Source: an uncultured Acidobacteriota bacterium (lineage in GTDB: Bacteria > Acidobacteriota > Vicinamibacteria > Vicinamibacterales > UBA2999). From it: a stretch of 64,000 nt of DNA. Where the stretch lies: positions 1,857-65,856 of the forward strand of contig CAWHBF010000022.1 in the NCBI GenBank assembly GCA_963827515.1, written 5' to 3'. Shown here piece after piece: positions 42,139-52,738 of the stretch. A program made the translations under genes and the position numbers. Position 1 is the first letter of the stretch. Each line of letters starts with the position of its first letter. The notes below the pieces were generated by a model. That model made no database searches, had not been told where the DNA came from, and worked only from the letters and a program-made list of their open reading frames with translations.

Positions 42139-42213
42139 GGGCTCTGGACTCTGGGCTCTCGGCTCCGGGCTTGGGTTCGCGGCCTTGGGCCACGGGCCTT
42201 CGGCTGTCGGTCT
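42139..42213. repeat. Heptamer tandem array (GGGCTCT-like)
   Basis: gggctct ggactct gggctct cggctcc... ggccttg ggccacg ggccttc. Confidence 0.75.
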
Positions 42214-43126: not shown

Positions 43127-43543
43127 GTGGAGGTAATCCGCAGCATCATTGCGGTGCTGGGCGGCATTGGCCTACTCTCGATCGTCGTCGAGGTACTGGA
43201 GTTCACGCTGGTCAACGCCGTCGCGGGCGCACCGCCCACCGACCTGCCGGGATACTTCGCCGTGCGCAATCAGCCGGTCATCCTGACGGCCAAACTCGGA
43301 TATAACTCGGTCGGAGCGGTGCTTGGCGGGTACCTGACTGCGCGGGTCGCGGGCCGGCAGGAGATGTGGCACGGCTGGGTGGCGGCCATCGTGCAAACAG
43401 CGGCGTTGATCTTTGGCTTTACGGTCGGCGAATTTGCCGGATTCACGCCGACCTGGATGCGGATTGCGCTGGTCCTGATCACCGGGCCAGCGATGCTGCT
43501 GGGCGCCTCGATTCGCGCGCGAGCGGCAAGGAGTACAACGTGA
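43127..43543 (+). CDS. Small membrane protein
   Basis: 4 hydrophobic segments; GTGA coupling to pheA. Confidence 0.7.
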   Translation: MEVIRSIIAVLGGIGLLSIVVEVLEFTLVNAVAGAPPTDLPGYFAVRNQPVILTAKLGYNSVGAVLGGYLTARVAGRQEMWHGWVAAIVQTAALIFGFTVGEFAGFTPTWMRIALVLITGPAMLLGASIRARAARSTT

Positions 43544-44364
43544 GACTGGCGTATCAAGGCGAACCGGGCGCCTATAGCGAAGCGGCGGCGCGACTCTTCT
43601 CGCCGCACACCGAAACGCTCCCGTGCAAGACGTTCGACGAGGTCTTCGACGCGGTCGTCGAGAAACGCGCCACGCACGGCGTCGTGCCGATGGAGAACTC
43701 GGTCGGCGGCACGATCCATCGCAACTACGATCTGCTCGTCGATCACGAGATCGCGATCACCGGTGAGGTCGAGCTCGACGTCGTACACTGCCTCCAGGCG
43801 CTGCCCGGCACCAAGATCGCGGACGTGAAGATCGTGTACTCGCACCCGCAGGCGCTGGCGCAGTGCGAGCGGTATCTCAAGGATCTCGGCGTCACCGTGG
43901 AGGCGGTCTACGACACGGCCGGAGGCGCGAAGCTGGTGGCGGAACAGCGTCTCGCGAATGCGGCCGCGCTGGCCTCTCGGCGCGCGGCGGAGGTCTTCGG
44001 TCTCGAGGTCATCCAGGAAGCCGTTCAGGACTTCGAGTTCAATATCACCCGCTTCTTCGTCATCGGCGGCGCCCCCCCTGCCGACGCCAACAAGACGACG
44101 ATCGTGTTTGCCCTGCCGAGCACGCCCGGGTCGCTCTTCAAGGCGTTGAGCGTGTTCGCCCTGCGCGATATCAACCTGAGCAAACTCGAGAGCCGGCCGA
44201 TCCGCGGGAGGCCCTGGGAGTACCTGTTCTACGTGGACATCGACACGCGTCGAGACGAGCTCCCCTGCGCCCGGGCGCTCACGCAGCTCGGCGAGTTCGC
44301 GAAGTGGGTCAGGGTGCTGGGCACGTACAAGGGGTGGGAGCGGGCGAAGCAGACGCAGATCTAA
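43540..44364 (+). CDS. pheA: Prephenate dehydratase
   Basis: AYQGEPGAYSE, ENSVGG, SHPQALAQC, NITRF, LESRP ACT domain. Confidence 0.95.
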   Translation: MRLAYQGEPGAYSEAAARLFSPHTETLPCKTFDEVFDAVVEKRATHGVVPMENSVGGTIHRNYDLLVDHEIAITGEVELDVVHCLQALPGTKIADVKIVYSHPQALAQCERYLKDLGVTVEAVYDTAGGAKLVAEQRLANAAALASRRAAEVFGLEVIQEAVQDFEFNITRFFVIGGAPPADANKTTIVFALPSTPGSLFKALSVFALRDINLSKLESRPIRGRPWEYLFYVDIDTRRDELPCARALTQLGEFAKWVRVLGTYKGWERAKQTQI

Positions 44365-44806
44365 GAAGTGCAAAGTCGAAAGTGCAAAGTGAAAAGTCGG
44401 AAAGTGCGAAGTGGAAGTAGAAACGGATTACCTCGCCGCAGGTGGTTGGTTTTTTCATCCGATTCGTGTTTTCACGTGCGGTCCGCACAGAGGTTGCGAA
44501 GATCTTCGCCAGTGCTCGCGCCTCGTTGATCAGCTCGGGATCGTGCTGGATGCGGCTGTCCCTGAAGTACTCGAGCCAGTCCAAGCACTCGTCCGCCTCC
44601 TCCGCGACGGTGCCAAGCCTGGCCTGAAACTCGGCGCGAGAGCGTCCCTTTAGCGCCGCCCGATAATTCGAGCGCACCGAGTTTCCAGCGCGTCGCAATT
44701 GTCCCGCCGCCTCCTGCGCTTCCGAGGCCCTTGGCAAGCGCCGACAGAATGTCAATATCGAGAGAGCAAACAGCCGCGTGCGCTCGACCAAATCATGAGA
44801 AGGCAT
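44309..44806 (-). CDS. Four-helix-bundle protein (23S rRNA IVP / Avd-like family)
   Basis: L.ERT..FA, QL.RAG.SV..NYR.A...RS..EF...L....EE.DE...WLE; C-terminus runs through the array. Confidence 0.85.
   Translation of the reverse strand: MPSHDLVERTRLFALSILTFCRRLPRASEAQEAAGQLRRAGNSVRSNYRAALKGRSRAEFQARLGTVAEEADECLDWLEYFRDSRIQHDPELINEARALAKIFATSVRTARENTNRMKKPTTCGEVIRFYFHFALSDFSLCTFDFALLRSASASPAPTPCTCPAP
44364..44420. repeat. AAAGT heptamer array, left flank of the four-helix-bundle gene
   Basis: gaagtg caaagtc gaaagtg caaagtg aaaagtc ggaaagtg cgaagtg gaagtag. Confidence 0.88.
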
Positions 44807-44820
44807 GCGACACTGCCCTG

Positions 44821-44836
44821 TGCATGACCACTGCCA
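44821..44836 (-). promoter_or_regulatory. sigma54 -24/-12 motif upstream of the four-helix-bundle gene
   Basis: TGGCAGTGGTCATGCA on the minus strand, 15 bp from the ATG. Confidence 0.55.
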
Positions 44837-44894
44837 CGAGGACTGCGAGCAGAAACGAGACGCAGATCGACCGGCGCGTCGCAATTTCTCCACC

Positions 44895-44927
44895 CACTTT
44901 CAACTTTAAACTTTGCACTTTCTACTT
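44895..44927. repeat. ACTTT heptamer array, inverted relative to 44364-44420
   Basis: cacttt caacttt aaacttt gcacttt ctactt. Confidence 0.85.
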
Positions 44928-45719
44928 ATTGAAGACTCCCTCGATTCTCGCCTGGACGACTTTCGCAACGTCCCGGATGCTGAGCTCGTCCGGCGACGCA
45001 GCATTTTCGTGGCCGAGGGTCGCCTCGTCGTACGTCGGCTCATGACTGAAAGTACGTTCGTCACCAGATCGGTGATGCTGACCGACGCAGCTCGCGAGGG
45101 GATGACGGATCTCATCGCCTCGCGGCCGGACGTACCTGCCTACGTCGTACCCCAAGCGGTGATGGACCGCGTTGCCGGCTTCCACATCCATCGCGGATGC
45201 CTGGCCATCGGCGAGTATCCGCGGCCGCGGCCCTGGGAGGAAATCGTCGCGGGCGCCCGCATGGTCCTCGTGCTCGAGCGAATTGCGAACCCGGACAACG
45301 TGGGCGGCATCTTTCGATGCGCCGCCGCGTTCGGCGCCGACGCCGTCCTGCTCGACCCGGCCACGACCGACCCGCTGTACCGGAAGGCCATTCGAACATC
45401 GATGGGAGCGGCCCTGGTCGTGCCGTTCGCGCGCATGCAGGAATGGCCAACCGCGCTCAATGAGTTGCGGGCACGCGGCTTCGCCGTGACCGCGATGACA
45501 CCCGACCCTTCCGCGCCTGCCCTGAGTGCAATCGCCCGTGGATTTGCCAACCGTCCCGTGGCCCTCGTGCTCGGCCACGAAGGCGACGGGCTGAGCGGCC
45601 CGGCGCTCGCGGCCTGCGAGTTTCACGCGCGGATTCCCATGACCTCGAGCGTCGATTCGCTCAACGTCGCCACCACCGCGGCGATTGCGCTGTACGACCT
45701 GCGGGGGTCAAGGGCGTAA
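44913..45719 (+). CDS. TrmH/SpoU family RNA methyltransferase
   Basis: NPDNVGGIFR, R.SMG, LGHEGDGL, IPM...VDSLNVA. Confidence 0.92.
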   Translation: MHFLLIEDSLDSRLDDFRNVPDAELVRRRSIFVAEGRLVVRRLMTESTFVTRSVMLTDAAREGMTDLIASRPDVPAYVVPQAVMDRVAGFHIHRGCLAIGEYPRPRPWEEIVAGARMVLVLERIANPDNVGGIFRCAAAFGADAVLLDPATTDPLYRKAIRTSMGAALVVPFARMQEWPTALNELRARGFAVTAMTPDPSAPALSAIARGFANRPVALVLGHEGDGLSGPALAACEFHARIPMTSSVDSLNVATTAAIALYDLRGSRA

Positions 45720-48642: not shown

Positions 48643-48777
48643 CCGAGACTTTGGACTTTAGACTTTGGACTTTGGACTTTGGGCTCTGGGCTCTGGACTT
48701 GGGCTCTGGGCTGTGGGTTCTGACAATCAACTTGATACTTTTTACTTTTCTACTTTTTACTTTTAAGTTTTAAGTCT
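48643..48777. repeat. Composite heptamer arrays (GACTTTG grading to GGCTCTG, then TACTTTT)
   Basis: Arrays fill almost the entire intergenic space. Confidence 0.88.
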
Positions 48778-52698: not shown

Positions 52699-52738
52699 GA
52701 AGTCGAAAGTCAAAAGTCAGAAGTCGAAAGTCGCAAAG
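52699..52738. repeat. AAAGT heptamer array
   Basis: gaagtc gaaagtc aaaagtc agaagtc gaaagtc. Confidence 0.85.

Follow-up and report, generated by a model that had tools for sequence, protein, structure and literature searches.

In the window, by which we mean the whole stretch of 64,000 nucleotides analysed here, the entire spacer between pheA and trmH (44365-44927, 563 bp) consists of a tandem heptamer array, a minus-strand four-helix-bundle (4HB) gene, a sigma54-type element and a second heptamer array in inverted orientation (Table 1). The ORF list and Pfam matches confirm the gene order given in an earlier note on this DNA, which had described a lone IVP/Avd-like gene lying antisense between these co-directional neighbours. 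The predicted TTG start of trmH, whose N-terminus was set by eye against the DNA of a relative (G010), falls within the right array. No transposase or recombinase gene occurs in the cassette, whose sole ORF belongs to PF05635. Rfam gave no match in 43800-45400 at E<=1, and a local repeat scan found no target-site duplication adjoining both arrays. An exact 11-nt direct repeat (44351-44361 and 44858-44868; chance estimate ~0.08) encloses the left array, the gene and the promoter, not the right array.

Table 1. Features of the pheA-trmH locus and a related array in the window
Feature	Positions	Strand	Basis or remark
pheA (prephenate dehydratase + ACT), left neighbour	43366-44364	+	Pfam PDT 204 bits, ACT 29.9 bits
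pheA TAA stop	44362-44364	+	directly adjoins left heptamer array
4HB protein CDS in present assembly	44309-44806	-	165 aa; PF05635 and TIGR02436 above cut-offs
Left heptamer array, AAGTGCA/AAAGTCG type	44365-44423		~7-8 units; TRF and inverted match
Alternative TAA ending the 4HB gene	44428-44430	-	if T-run one base shorter; protein ~125 aa
T6 homopolymer (A6 on sense strand), 1-nt frameshift site	44450-44455		contig comparison and frame reading
Sigma54-type -24/-12 element, TGGCAG-N5-ATGCA	44821-44836	-	GG-N10-GC; motif conservation
Right heptamer array, ACTTTCA/ACTTTGC type	44885-44927		~5 units; TRF and inverted arms
SpoU/TrmH-family methylase (trmH), right neighbour	44913-45719	+	Pfam SpoU_methylase 126.8 bits; ORF list
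Further AAGTCGA-class array, without 4HB gene	52700-52738		TRF row C22:54556-54594

The 4HB protein matches PF05635, its sole Pfam family, at 38.6 bits (cut-off 33.8) and TIGR02436 at 58.6 (cut-off 24). The ORF as listed spans 44309-44893, and its start is likely the ATG at 44806 rather than the GTG at 44893. The core of ~120 aa is basic (pI 10) and carries N47 and E73, the invariant N and E of the family; the closest homologue (L031 of G009) has 123 aa and shares 62% identity, and proteins of the family typically measure ~115-130 aa. The final ~40 aa are read-through of the array into pheA. The earlier note had remarked that the ORF stays free of stops across the left array and 56 bp of pheA, which is true of the assembly but probably not a real feature. 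The ORF reaches 44309, 56 nt inside pheA, because of the T6 run; contigs of X1 and X6, which are soil metagenomes of two separate studies, have one T fewer, at 44450, and the gene consequently ends at the alternative TAA. To judge by these contigs, the long tail is a 1-nt homopolymer frameshift and no design feature. A profile of the protein and its relatives matches the structures 2gsc (E 2e-37) and 2rld, which have five chains each. In diversity-generating retroelements (DGRs) the accessory protein Avd is described as a barrel of five subunits with positive charge, which binds one specific RNA element. By analogy, the protein encoded between pheA and trmH may form a pentamer.

Tandem Repeats Finder (TRF) places the left array at 44366-44413 (period 7, 6.7 copies; by eye ~8 units, to 44423) and the right one at 44896-44927 (period 7, 4.6 copies), in agreement with the roughly eight AAAGT and five ACTTT heptamers counted previously. 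Relative to the 4HB gene, the left array is downstream and, on the sense strand of the gene, C/T-rich; the right array lies upstream of the promoter and is purine-rich on that strand. They are mutual reverse complements, as had been proposed, with arms at 44373-44402 and 44898-44927 (30 nt, 83%). An inverted score this high (>=14) was reached at 3 of 400 random pseudo-genes of equal geometry (0.75%). The left array differs among strains, with indels at 44403, 44413 and 44421, and contigs of X4 have additional units. Arrays disrupt short-read assembly (contigs end at 44366, 44397 and 44877), and heptamer arrays may be taken for CRISPR arrays by mistake.

The sigma54 consensus is TGGCAC-N5-TTGCW, with its GG and GC elements 10 nt apart, and the element between the arms matches 9 of the 11 positions of this consensus. 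That the cassette holds a GG-N10-GC motif, and with it a sigma54-type promoter of its own, was already part of the earlier note. The motif is present on the minus strand, and the promoter reading is supported by conservation and by rpoN in the genome (PF04552, 220.7 bits, G000:C16:57076-57549): motif scores of at least 7 at the correct spacing (13-17 nt) occur in 23 of 34 homologous loci versus 35 of 3000 control windows. With the C of the GC 16 nt ahead of the ATG at 44806, the leader would be only a few nucleotides long. A sigma54 element at such near-leaderless spacing is a predicted promoter kept in most of these 4HB loci. The upstream array lies 60-90 nt upstream of the -24 element. This sigma54, near-leaderless layout of 4HB genes in the order is a second result, for which we found no earlier report.

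The arrangement extends well beyond this spacer. In the same genome, all six PF05635 loci lie between inverted tandem heptamer arrays, each with a different unit, and across this genome and 14 relatives 30 of 34 4HB loci score at least 14. With 350-nt flanks, that score is reached at 5/6 loci in the genome itself, 23/27 in relatives, 42/72 in other phyla and 3/400 random sites; the remaining 30 of the 72 loci in other phyla lack clear inverted arrays. Neither pattern that would speak against the earlier note, a gene fixed in synteny without arrays or paralogues showing no enrichment of flanking arrays, was found. Among 20 other 4HB loci, none lies in rRNA and none has an Rfam match at the gathering score. 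Heptamer repeats are described as common in some genomes, and ordinary slippage-prone repeats might fall on both sides of a gene by coincidence or artefact. We give this explanation almost no credence, given the 0.75% of random sites set against 30/34 4HB loci and the recovery of the same arrangement in independent metagenome contigs of other studies. Protein identity follows unit similarity (Mantel p<=0.0005, 47 loci), and the AGGCTGT unit goes with A2-type 4HB proteins in many phyla. Where similar proteins share a unit, the cause might be that whole cassettes descend from a recent ancestor, and not recognition.

Arrays of this kind are dispersed throughout the genome, with 291 period-7 TRF rows. 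At TRF scores of at least 45, period 7 accounts for 150 rows, compared with 13 for period 6 and 32 for period 8. By a crude gene call, 250 of the 291 arrays are intergenic, versus 37% of random sites. They adjoin highly expressed genes, for example rplC and infC, and are not biased towards divergent, tandem or convergent spacers; a reading of the arrays as terminators was rejected, convergent gene pairs not being enriched in them. The median is 4.6 copies per array, and the copy-number mode near 5 is partly a product of the TRF score threshold. Forty-three arrays form hairpins with loops of 3-143 nt, and hairpin loops also harbour another small palindromic repeat.

These arrays fall into a small number of unit families, which match the flanks of the 4HB paralogues. 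Grouped by exact unit class (single-linkage merged all units into one cluster), 166 of the 277 arrays outside cassettes bear a unit that is repeated in a 4HB flank, versus 4 of 61 arrays of other genomes. Cassette flanks have many BLAST copies elsewhere in the genome, which the 4HB genes do not. The family of the pheA-trmH locus is small (22 arrays by unit, 2 BLAST matches); one of its members in the window shares the AAAGTCG unit class with the cassette flanks (Table 1). Members of the GGTTCGG family have conserved outer ends in common. A G-quadruplex reading, taken from PMC4692102, does not hold in general, as G-tracts are absent from most units (AAAGTGC, AAATGCA, CAGTTCT, TTAGTCG, CAGCTAT).

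Arrays and 4HB genes also co-occur across genomes. Five related genomes with 4HB genes have 1.0-10.9 arrays (score >=45) per 100 kb, whereas four related genomes without them have 0, 0, 0 and 0.7; this density sample includes contig interiors, as the first 20 kb of contigs alone are biased and yield 0 arrays for the genome studied here. In five genomes of other phyla, 7 of 7 flank units proved to be dispersed as a family in the genome they came from, with 0-20 matches in the other four; for the unit GAGAAAA the reversed-pattern control is invalid, its backward reading being its own rotation, and the AGGCTGT family of G022 occurs on only ~7 contigs. A Xanthomonas genome contains one 4HB gene, flanked by the GGGAATC unit, and 327 GGGAATC windows. 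In the order to which it belongs (that of G021), 12 of 13 genomes with at least 10 GGGAATC-like windows encode a 4HB gene, and 1 of 48 genomes without the gene reaches that number; these genome samples are small and their members mutually related. No 4HB gene is detectable in G095, which has 119 GGGAATC-like windows; therefore either arrays can outlast the gene or the gene is absent from that assembly.

At the locus itself, presence and absence can be scored in one relative, because only G010 (1 of 14 trmH orthologue loci) keeps pheA upstream. Here pheA, 74% identical to its orthologue in the window, lies directly beside trmH, and the junction has neither array nor gene. This bears on the idea that array hairpins are independent host repeats and that 4HB cassettes insert into, or survive in, their loops. 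The 43 empty hairpins far outnumber the gene-bearing ones and the loops host another palindromic repeat too, as such a target preference would predict, yet the G010 junction lacks arrays as well as the gene, and relatives without 4HB genes are without arrays. The unit moreover follows the protein subfamily across phyla, as AGGCTGT does with A2-type proteins, and six paralogues have six different units. We regard insertion into pre-existing hairpins as very unlikely.

Could the arrays instead be a regulon? They may be operator or RNA sites of a global transcriptional or post-transcriptional regulator, in which case the cassette's own flanks would serve autoregulation and the sites would have spread independently of the protein. 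Intergenic placement beside highly expressed genes suits this, as does the position of the upstream array relative to the -24 element, and the co-occurrence and unit matching fit equally well. For paired heptanucleotide sites, an "unidentified global regulator" was put forward in the Geobacter genome paper. However, autoregulation needs no inverted downstream copy, and such a copy is the rule across phyla. The indifference to spacer type also counts against regulatory sites, the conserved outer ends of the GGTTCGG members are those expected of copied elements, and the origin of hundreds of sites is left unaccounted for. We consider a regulon unlikely, if still a serious contender.

The earlier note had offered two readings of the cassette: a mobile or excisable unit whose flanks could pair into a stem, and a protein that binds or spreads the arrays. 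As to the first, the flanks do pair in silico on either strand, the closing stem appearing in both minimum-free-energy folds (z -3.6 and -3.3), and the G010 junction is empty. Excision itself found no support: over 43900-45300, contigs of three DNA runs (X1, X4, X6) and one RNA library (X15) include no joint that skips the cassette, and contigs bridge pheA, array and gene as well as promoter and right array. Assembled contigs are unable to demonstrate absence or to reveal RNA ends or expression; nor does coverage of the gene in X15 prove its transcription.

The same observations weigh on a cassette of the kind found as intervening sequences (IVSs) in 23S rRNA, in which the arrays would pair in read-through RNA, RNase III would cut the stem, and the protein would be cargo that recognises no array. 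Layout and size resemble a published IVS of 428 nt that contains an S23p ORF and is closed by a terminal stem of 28 bp, folding predicts the cassette's terminal stem on either strand, and 41 short hairpins have a weak G:T excess on the strand with the G-rich 5' arm (54 vs 34). Mismatches in the cassette arms, by contrast, show no G:U bias (78 vs 68, with 166 other mismatches), and no joined form came to light in the four runs. The 4HB gene's own mRNA would lack the upstream arm, because the sigma54-type promoter lies inside the arms. An IVS-type origin would also leave unexplained the tandem 7-nt make-up of the arms, the match of each paralogue to a family, and the scarcity of arrays in genomes without 4HB genes. 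We think it improbable. The second reading, a protein that would bind or spread the arrays, is favoured over excision by the comparative evidence, because each paralogue has its own flank unit, that unit forms a dispersed family in the same genome, and arrays and gene co-occur.

The parallels with ORF-bearing IVSs of Coxiella and Leptospira are nonetheless close. Cassette and IVS alike are elements of ~430-560 nt with stem-forming terminal inverted repeats and a single PF05635-family ORF; the terminal inverted repeats around an S23p-type ORF are matched here by the 30-nt arms. Unlike IVSs, which are inserted in helix 9, 25 or 45 of 23S rRNA, the cassette lies outside rRNA between two protein genes, its arms are tandem heptamer arrays present elsewhere in the genome, and it has a sigma54-type promoter inside those arms. 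Published accounts treat IVSs as selfish elements or as horizontally acquired ones, and it has been suggested there that the ORF may be a component of mobility.

Avd belongs to a homologous fold family, and the cassette might recall a DGR. This reading was rejected because the genome (97.5% complete) has no reverse transcriptase, with 0 matches to PF00078. The neighbours are pheA and trmH, and an 800-nt scan (44250-45050) found no long direct repeat, the longest having 17 nt.

In REP/REPIN-RAYT systems, a single-copy gene lies between inverted copies of a short repeat, with one gene per family; the repeat is dispersed intergenically, often as inverted pairs, and gene and family co-occur in genomes. 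Inverted flanks of a dispersed repeat, with one gene per family, were found here in the genome studied and in five others. The differences lie in the parts: the gene encodes an Avd/IVP-type 4HB protein and no HUH Y1 transposase, and in place of single palindromes the repeats form tandem 7-nt arrays. The cassette would work like REP/REPIN-RAYT and is yet not a member of it. TRAP and HutP are homo-oligomeric rings that bind tandem RNA repeats. One short repeat per ring subunit would account for arrays of ~5 units with a pentamer; the PF05635 fold is different, and the likeness is purely one of analogy.

Dispersed heptamer families have been described before, including GGGAATC in Xanthomonas, GGGGA(C/T)T in Nostoc, paired sites in Geobacter and TAACTGA in Beggiatoaceae (PMC4692102, PMC4679880, PMC2700814). 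According to these papers they are intergenic, comprise a few to ~14 units, number ~180 per genome, form many convergent inverted pairs, and are said to arise by polymerase slippage as well. The Xanthomonas family resembles the cassette in that its unit flanks the single 4HB gene of the genome. No passage matched by term in the three papers links such repeats to a 4HB/S23 gene, and in openly readable main texts we found no literature that connects heptamer arrays, whether flanking or dispersed, with PF05635/S23/IVP genes.

Taken together, these comparisons, made at the level of sequence, point to a REP/RAYT-like partnership of a pentameric, array-binding 4HB protein with a cognate heptamer family, a model to which we give slightly less than an even chance. 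The pheA-trmH spacer would be one instance of a widespread unit in which a single-copy gene for a basic Avd/IVP-type protein sits inside its own inverted arrays. Each 4HB paralogue would be tied to one array family, present at tens to hundreds of intergenic sites of the same genome, often as short-loop hairpins, with the gene placed in the 'master' hairpin of the family. The protein would form a pentameric ring that recognises cognate arrays, with about one heptamer per subunit (arrays typically have 4-6 units), and the ring may maintain the arrays in the genome, aid their spread, or both. Gene and arrays would be gained and lost jointly. In this lineage the gene's own sigma54 promoter would give a nearly leaderless mRNA, and the upstream array would stand outside the 4HB transcript, at the usual distance of sigma54 activator sites. 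We infer specific array binding and any role in array spread; as no catalytic activity is known for 4HB proteins, the latter is so far without a mechanism.

A wider reading is more doubtful, and we put it forward tentatively. PF05635 proteins may be the missing trans-acting partners of heptamer families in many phyla, each pentamer recognising a 7-nt unit of its own and each gene residing in the founding hairpin of its family. This would make them a second system of the REPIN-RAYT kind, based on a nucleic-acid-binding ring without enzymatic activity. ORF-bearing IVSs would then be copies of this element that landed in rRNA, and Avd of DGRs would be a relative that was exapted. The partner families would include GGGAATC of Xanthomonas, the paired heptamer sites of Geobacter and, probably, cyanobacterial STRR. 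The hypothesis is directly testable, as each genome names its own protein-repeat pairs and structures of the family have already been solved. If true, it would explain what the abundant 'four helix bundle / S23 / IVP' proteins do outside DGRs, give an origin and a role to heptameric families left unexplained by several genome papers, and account for the nature of ORF-bearing rRNA intervening sequences.

The spacer between pheA and the SpoU/TrmH-type methylase gene holds a single minus-strand open reading frame, which profile searches place in the four-helix-bundle (4HB) family PF05635/TIGR02436. It is enclosed by two period-7 arrays (see table) that are reverse complements (30 nt, 83%), which bears out the earlier note on this DNA. 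The methylase is predicted to start at a TTG within the right array, so that the cassette (44365-44927, 563 bp) occupies the entire spacer. The cassette thus supplies the start of the methylase and leaves no space for a separate ribosome-binding site. Both cassette strands are predicted to fold with a long stem that joins their ends (z -3.6 and -3.3), and an Rfam search of the region gave no family match. The 11-nt direct repeat listed in the table could be chance (estimate about 0.08) or an insertion scar.

Coordinates of features in the window and in the source genome (contig:position)
Feature	Location	Strand	Remarks
pheA	43366-44364	+	PDT and ACT domains; left neighbour
Left period-7 array	44366-44413		6.7 copies, directly after pheA stop; degenerate units continue to 44423
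GG-N10-GC element	44821-44836		matches sigma54 consensus
Right period-7 array	44896-44927		4.6 copies; end of spacer
SpoU/TrmH methylase gene	44913-45719	+	right neighbour; predicted TTG start and first codons (44913-44927) part of right array
Exact direct repeat AGACGCAGATC	44351-44361, 44858-44868		pheA end; between sigma54 element and right array
Heptamer arrays without 4HB gene (n=3)	42139-42175, 48647-48764, 52700-52738		second is composite, three units in direct order (GACTTTG, GGGCTCT, TACTTTT), no hairpin
rplC (ribosomal protein L3)	C10:176342-177212		named from translation alone
infC (IF-3)	C21:328721-329539		named from translation alone
Loop palindromes	C25:226047-226228, C4:64672-64890, C23:584978-585171, C3:94200-94379
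Further loop-type palindrome	about 300 nt upstream of 4HB gene at C25:428401

The 4HB gene likely starts at the ATG at 44806. As assembled, its frame does cross the left array into pheA (to 44309), as the earlier note had reported, but this is not its design. In contigs of X1 and X6, soil metagenomes from two separate studies, which span pheA, the array and the 4HB gene at about 96-99% identity, the T6 run at 44450-44455 is one T shorter. This brings a TAA at 44428-44430 into frame and gives a protein of ~125 aa; its closest homologue, L031 (62% identical), is 123 aa long. Judged from these contigs, the long frame is a frameshift. Read-through into the downstream array also occurs in some other 4HB loci, but is not the rule. 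At L001, L004, L020 and L033 (loci of the source genome G000, G003 and G017), the frame enters the downstream array, so that the proteins end in 7-aa repeats such as NDPNDP... and EPRTGEPRT...

There are six PF05635 loci in the source genome (5.85 Mb, 64% G+C), one of which has an in-frame TGA. The paralogue check proposed in the earlier note found inverted tandem arrays around 6/6, with a different unit at each (CGTTCGG-like, TAGCCGG, AAAATGC/AAAATTC, GGTTCGG, AAAGTGC and GGTCTCT/GGGCTTT). Together with 14 relatives, this genome provides 34 loci, of which 30 reach an inverted-match score of at least 14 (L018, L024, L025 and L028 fall below it). With 350-nt flanks, the counts are 5/6 in the source genome, 23/27 in relatives and 42/72 in loci of many other phyla, collected with a 7-protein alignment, vs 3 of 400 random sites. 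None of the 20 foreign loci checked for rRNA location is within rRNA. On the sense strand of the gene, G outnumbers C in the upstream arm at 50 of 70 loci, indicating a preferred array orientation relative to the gene.

The sigma54-type promoter suggested in the earlier note also gains support. The element upstream of the gene matches the sigma54 consensus, and motifs scoring at least 7, whose GC precedes an in-frame start codon by 13-17 nt, occur at 23 of the 34 loci vs 35 of 3000 control windows; rpoN is present in the genome. Most of these promoter loci have no Shine-Dalgarno sequence apparent by eye. If transcription begins about 12 nt beyond the -12 C, the mRNA would have a leader of 1-5 nt. 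Being 60-90 nt upstream of the -24 element, the upstream array is not part of this 4HB transcript. Loci from other phyla do not share the motif, except for Vicinamibacterales-labelled L060 and one other.

Heptamer arrays are dispersed throughout the source genome, with 291 period-7 rows (TRF, score ≥36); at scores of at least 45 there are 150 rows of period 7, 13 of period 6 and 32 of period 8. The median array has 4.6 copies and is 32 nt long. By a crude GC3-based gene call, 250 of the 291 are intergenic, vs 37% of random sites, and none of tandem, convergent or divergent spacers is favoured. The first ~39 kb of each of the ten largest contigs lacks period-7 arrays (first arrays at 39.8-100.9 kb; genome average one per 20 kb; zero arrays in ten-bin, 200 kb resampling, P = 0.002); a regex check gives the same picture, and these stretches contain no Ns.

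Forty-three array pairs form hairpins with loops of 3-143 nt, and every loop of about 480-550 nt contains a 4HB gene. The units comprise a handful of classes, and 166 of the 277 arrays outside cassettes have a unit that is also repeated in the flank of a 4HB gene (such units cover 72 of the 1172 possible classes), against only 4 of 61 comparison arrays sampled from other genomes. BLAST finds many copies of cassette flanks in the genome, and copies of gene bodies only as paralogues. GGTTCGG-type hairpins have outer ends in common with the flanks of the cassette at C25:268k, and from sequence these look like gene-less copies and a gene-bearing element. The pheA-trmH cassette belongs to a small array family, with 22 arrays counted by unit and 2 hits in BLAST. 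Highly expressed housekeeping genes are also framed by arrays, since rplC and infC are each bracketed by hairpins of the GTCTTTG/AGACCAA class. As with other non-4HB genes between arrays of one family, the flanks here are complete hairpins, not single arms. Loops of several array hairpins contain a second small repeat, a palindrome of type GTAGAGCGCAGGC-TTCA-GCCTGCGC, which looks like an independent REP-like element nested within them.

Across relatives, we compared densities of period-7 arrays (score ≥45) per 100 kb of sampled DNA, in small samples from mutually related genomes. Densities in genomes with 4HB genes are 2.0 in G000 (6 genes), 1.0 in G002 (9), 2.5 in G012 (6), 4.0 in G018 (4) and 10.9 in G017 (17). 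Without a PF05635 match, they are 0 in G010 and G014 (600 kb each), 0 in G011 (194 kb) and 0.7 in G008 (149 kb). In five foreign genomes, G021-G025 (source loci labelled Xanthomonas, Hydrogenedentales, Acidobacteria, Gemmatimonadales and Geothrix), each 4HB-flank unit, written three times, was searched in all five; windows overlap, and counts are not loci. GGGAATC occurs in 327 windows in G021 and 0 in the other four, AGGCTGT in 38 in G022 (confined to about 7 contigs) and 6 elsewhere, CAGTTCT in 93 in G023 and 0 elsewhere, TTAGTCG in 35 in G024 and 19 in G023, and CAGCTAT in 62 in G025 and 22 elsewhere; reversed-unit controls for these five gave 0-1 windows. G024 and G025 each have a second 4HB gene with different flank units, GAGAAAA (45 windows in G024 vs 0 elsewhere) and GAAGCCT (119 in G025 vs 7 elsewhere). 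Every searched flank unit is thus dispersed in its own genome, so that 7/7 units predicted a family.

G021 has one 4HB gene. Published counts per Xanthomonas genome are about 180 arrays of GGGAATC, with about 70 convergent pairs, in a text that calls their role unknown and has no mention of S23, helix bundle or intervening (PMC4692102). Among 81 mutually related genomes of the G021 order (completeness not given), 33 have a PF05635 match. At least 10 GGGAATC-like windows (up to 3 mismatches) occur in 13 genomes, 12 with a 4HB gene; the other, G095 (119 windows), is the only one of the 48 gene-less genomes to do so. A protein search of G095 found no 4HB homologue (best E 0.085); either gene loss orphaned its arrays or the assembly lacks the gene. 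The backward-read control pattern is itself another repeat family in this order, with at least 10 windows in five further genomes (G036, G076, G089, G099, G103), all with the gene, and also in G062 (12) and gene-less G095 (41).

Protein identity is correlated with unit distance over the 47 loci whose period-7 arms are clear (Spearman -0.33, 0/2000 permutations as extreme). Units differ on average at 1.9 of 7 positions for protein pairs at least 60% identical and at 3.3-3.8 for more distant pairs, and A2-type 4HB proteins have AGGCTGT-like units in many phyla. Recognition would account for the pattern, as would block transfer with constraint; it may also reflect recent common descent. Overall, we regard the inverted-array architecture and the association with repeats as well supported, with little room for doubt.

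Among 14 trmH orthologue loci, pheA lies upstream of trmH only in G010, where the spacer of about 40-70 nt has neither array nor 4HB gene, making this the empty junction that the earlier note had sought; G010 also counts among those genomes that lack both 4HB genes and arrays. In G001, a genome of the same genus, trmH is preceded by another gene. The occupied junction recurs in soil-metagenome contigs of three other studies, with arrays that vary between strains. The gene and arrays may have been gained as a block; the idea of an excisable unit is not supported so far.

Pairing of the cassette arms in RNA or ssDNA is possible. However, arm mismatches in 70 cassettes show no G:U-compatible excess (78 on the sense vs 68 on the antisense strand), and 166, more than half, are not wobble-compatible at all; 41 short hairpins show a weak excess (54 vs 34). 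This points to complementarity arising mostly from same-unit arrays in opposite orientation, not from a finely selected RNA helix.

The cassette has the same layout as ORF-bearing 23S rRNA intervening sequences, although its site is not rRNA. One such sequence has 428 nt, a 28-bp terminal stem and an S23p ORF and is cut by RNase III; its origin is given as unknown, and the ORF was once proposed as a mobility component. The genome-wide logic is equal to that of REP/REPIN-RAYT systems, but the 4HB protein is no transposase. Dispersed heptamer arrays are themselves already in print; full-text searches of the main text of open-access papers found nothing that connects them with 4HB genes. One figure legend of a large clustering study names '23S rRNA IVP' among CRISPR-array-linked proteins (PMC10910872). 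On this single legend, we speculate that 4HB-flanking arrays might have been picked up there as CRISPR-like.

Two solved structures in the family, both with five deposited chains, match the profile of the 4HB protein and its relatives, and the core of the protein has a pI of 10. For the related accessory protein Avd of diversity-generating retroelements, the literature describes a pentameric barrel with positive charge, 'similar to S23 ribosomal proteins', and binding to a defined RNA element. A search of the source genome found no reverse transcriptase gene, so the 4HB protein is not a component of such a retroelement. We tentatively propose, at slightly less than even odds, that it is a binding partner of the heptamer arrays; a pentamer reading one heptamer per subunit would fit arrays of ~5 units.
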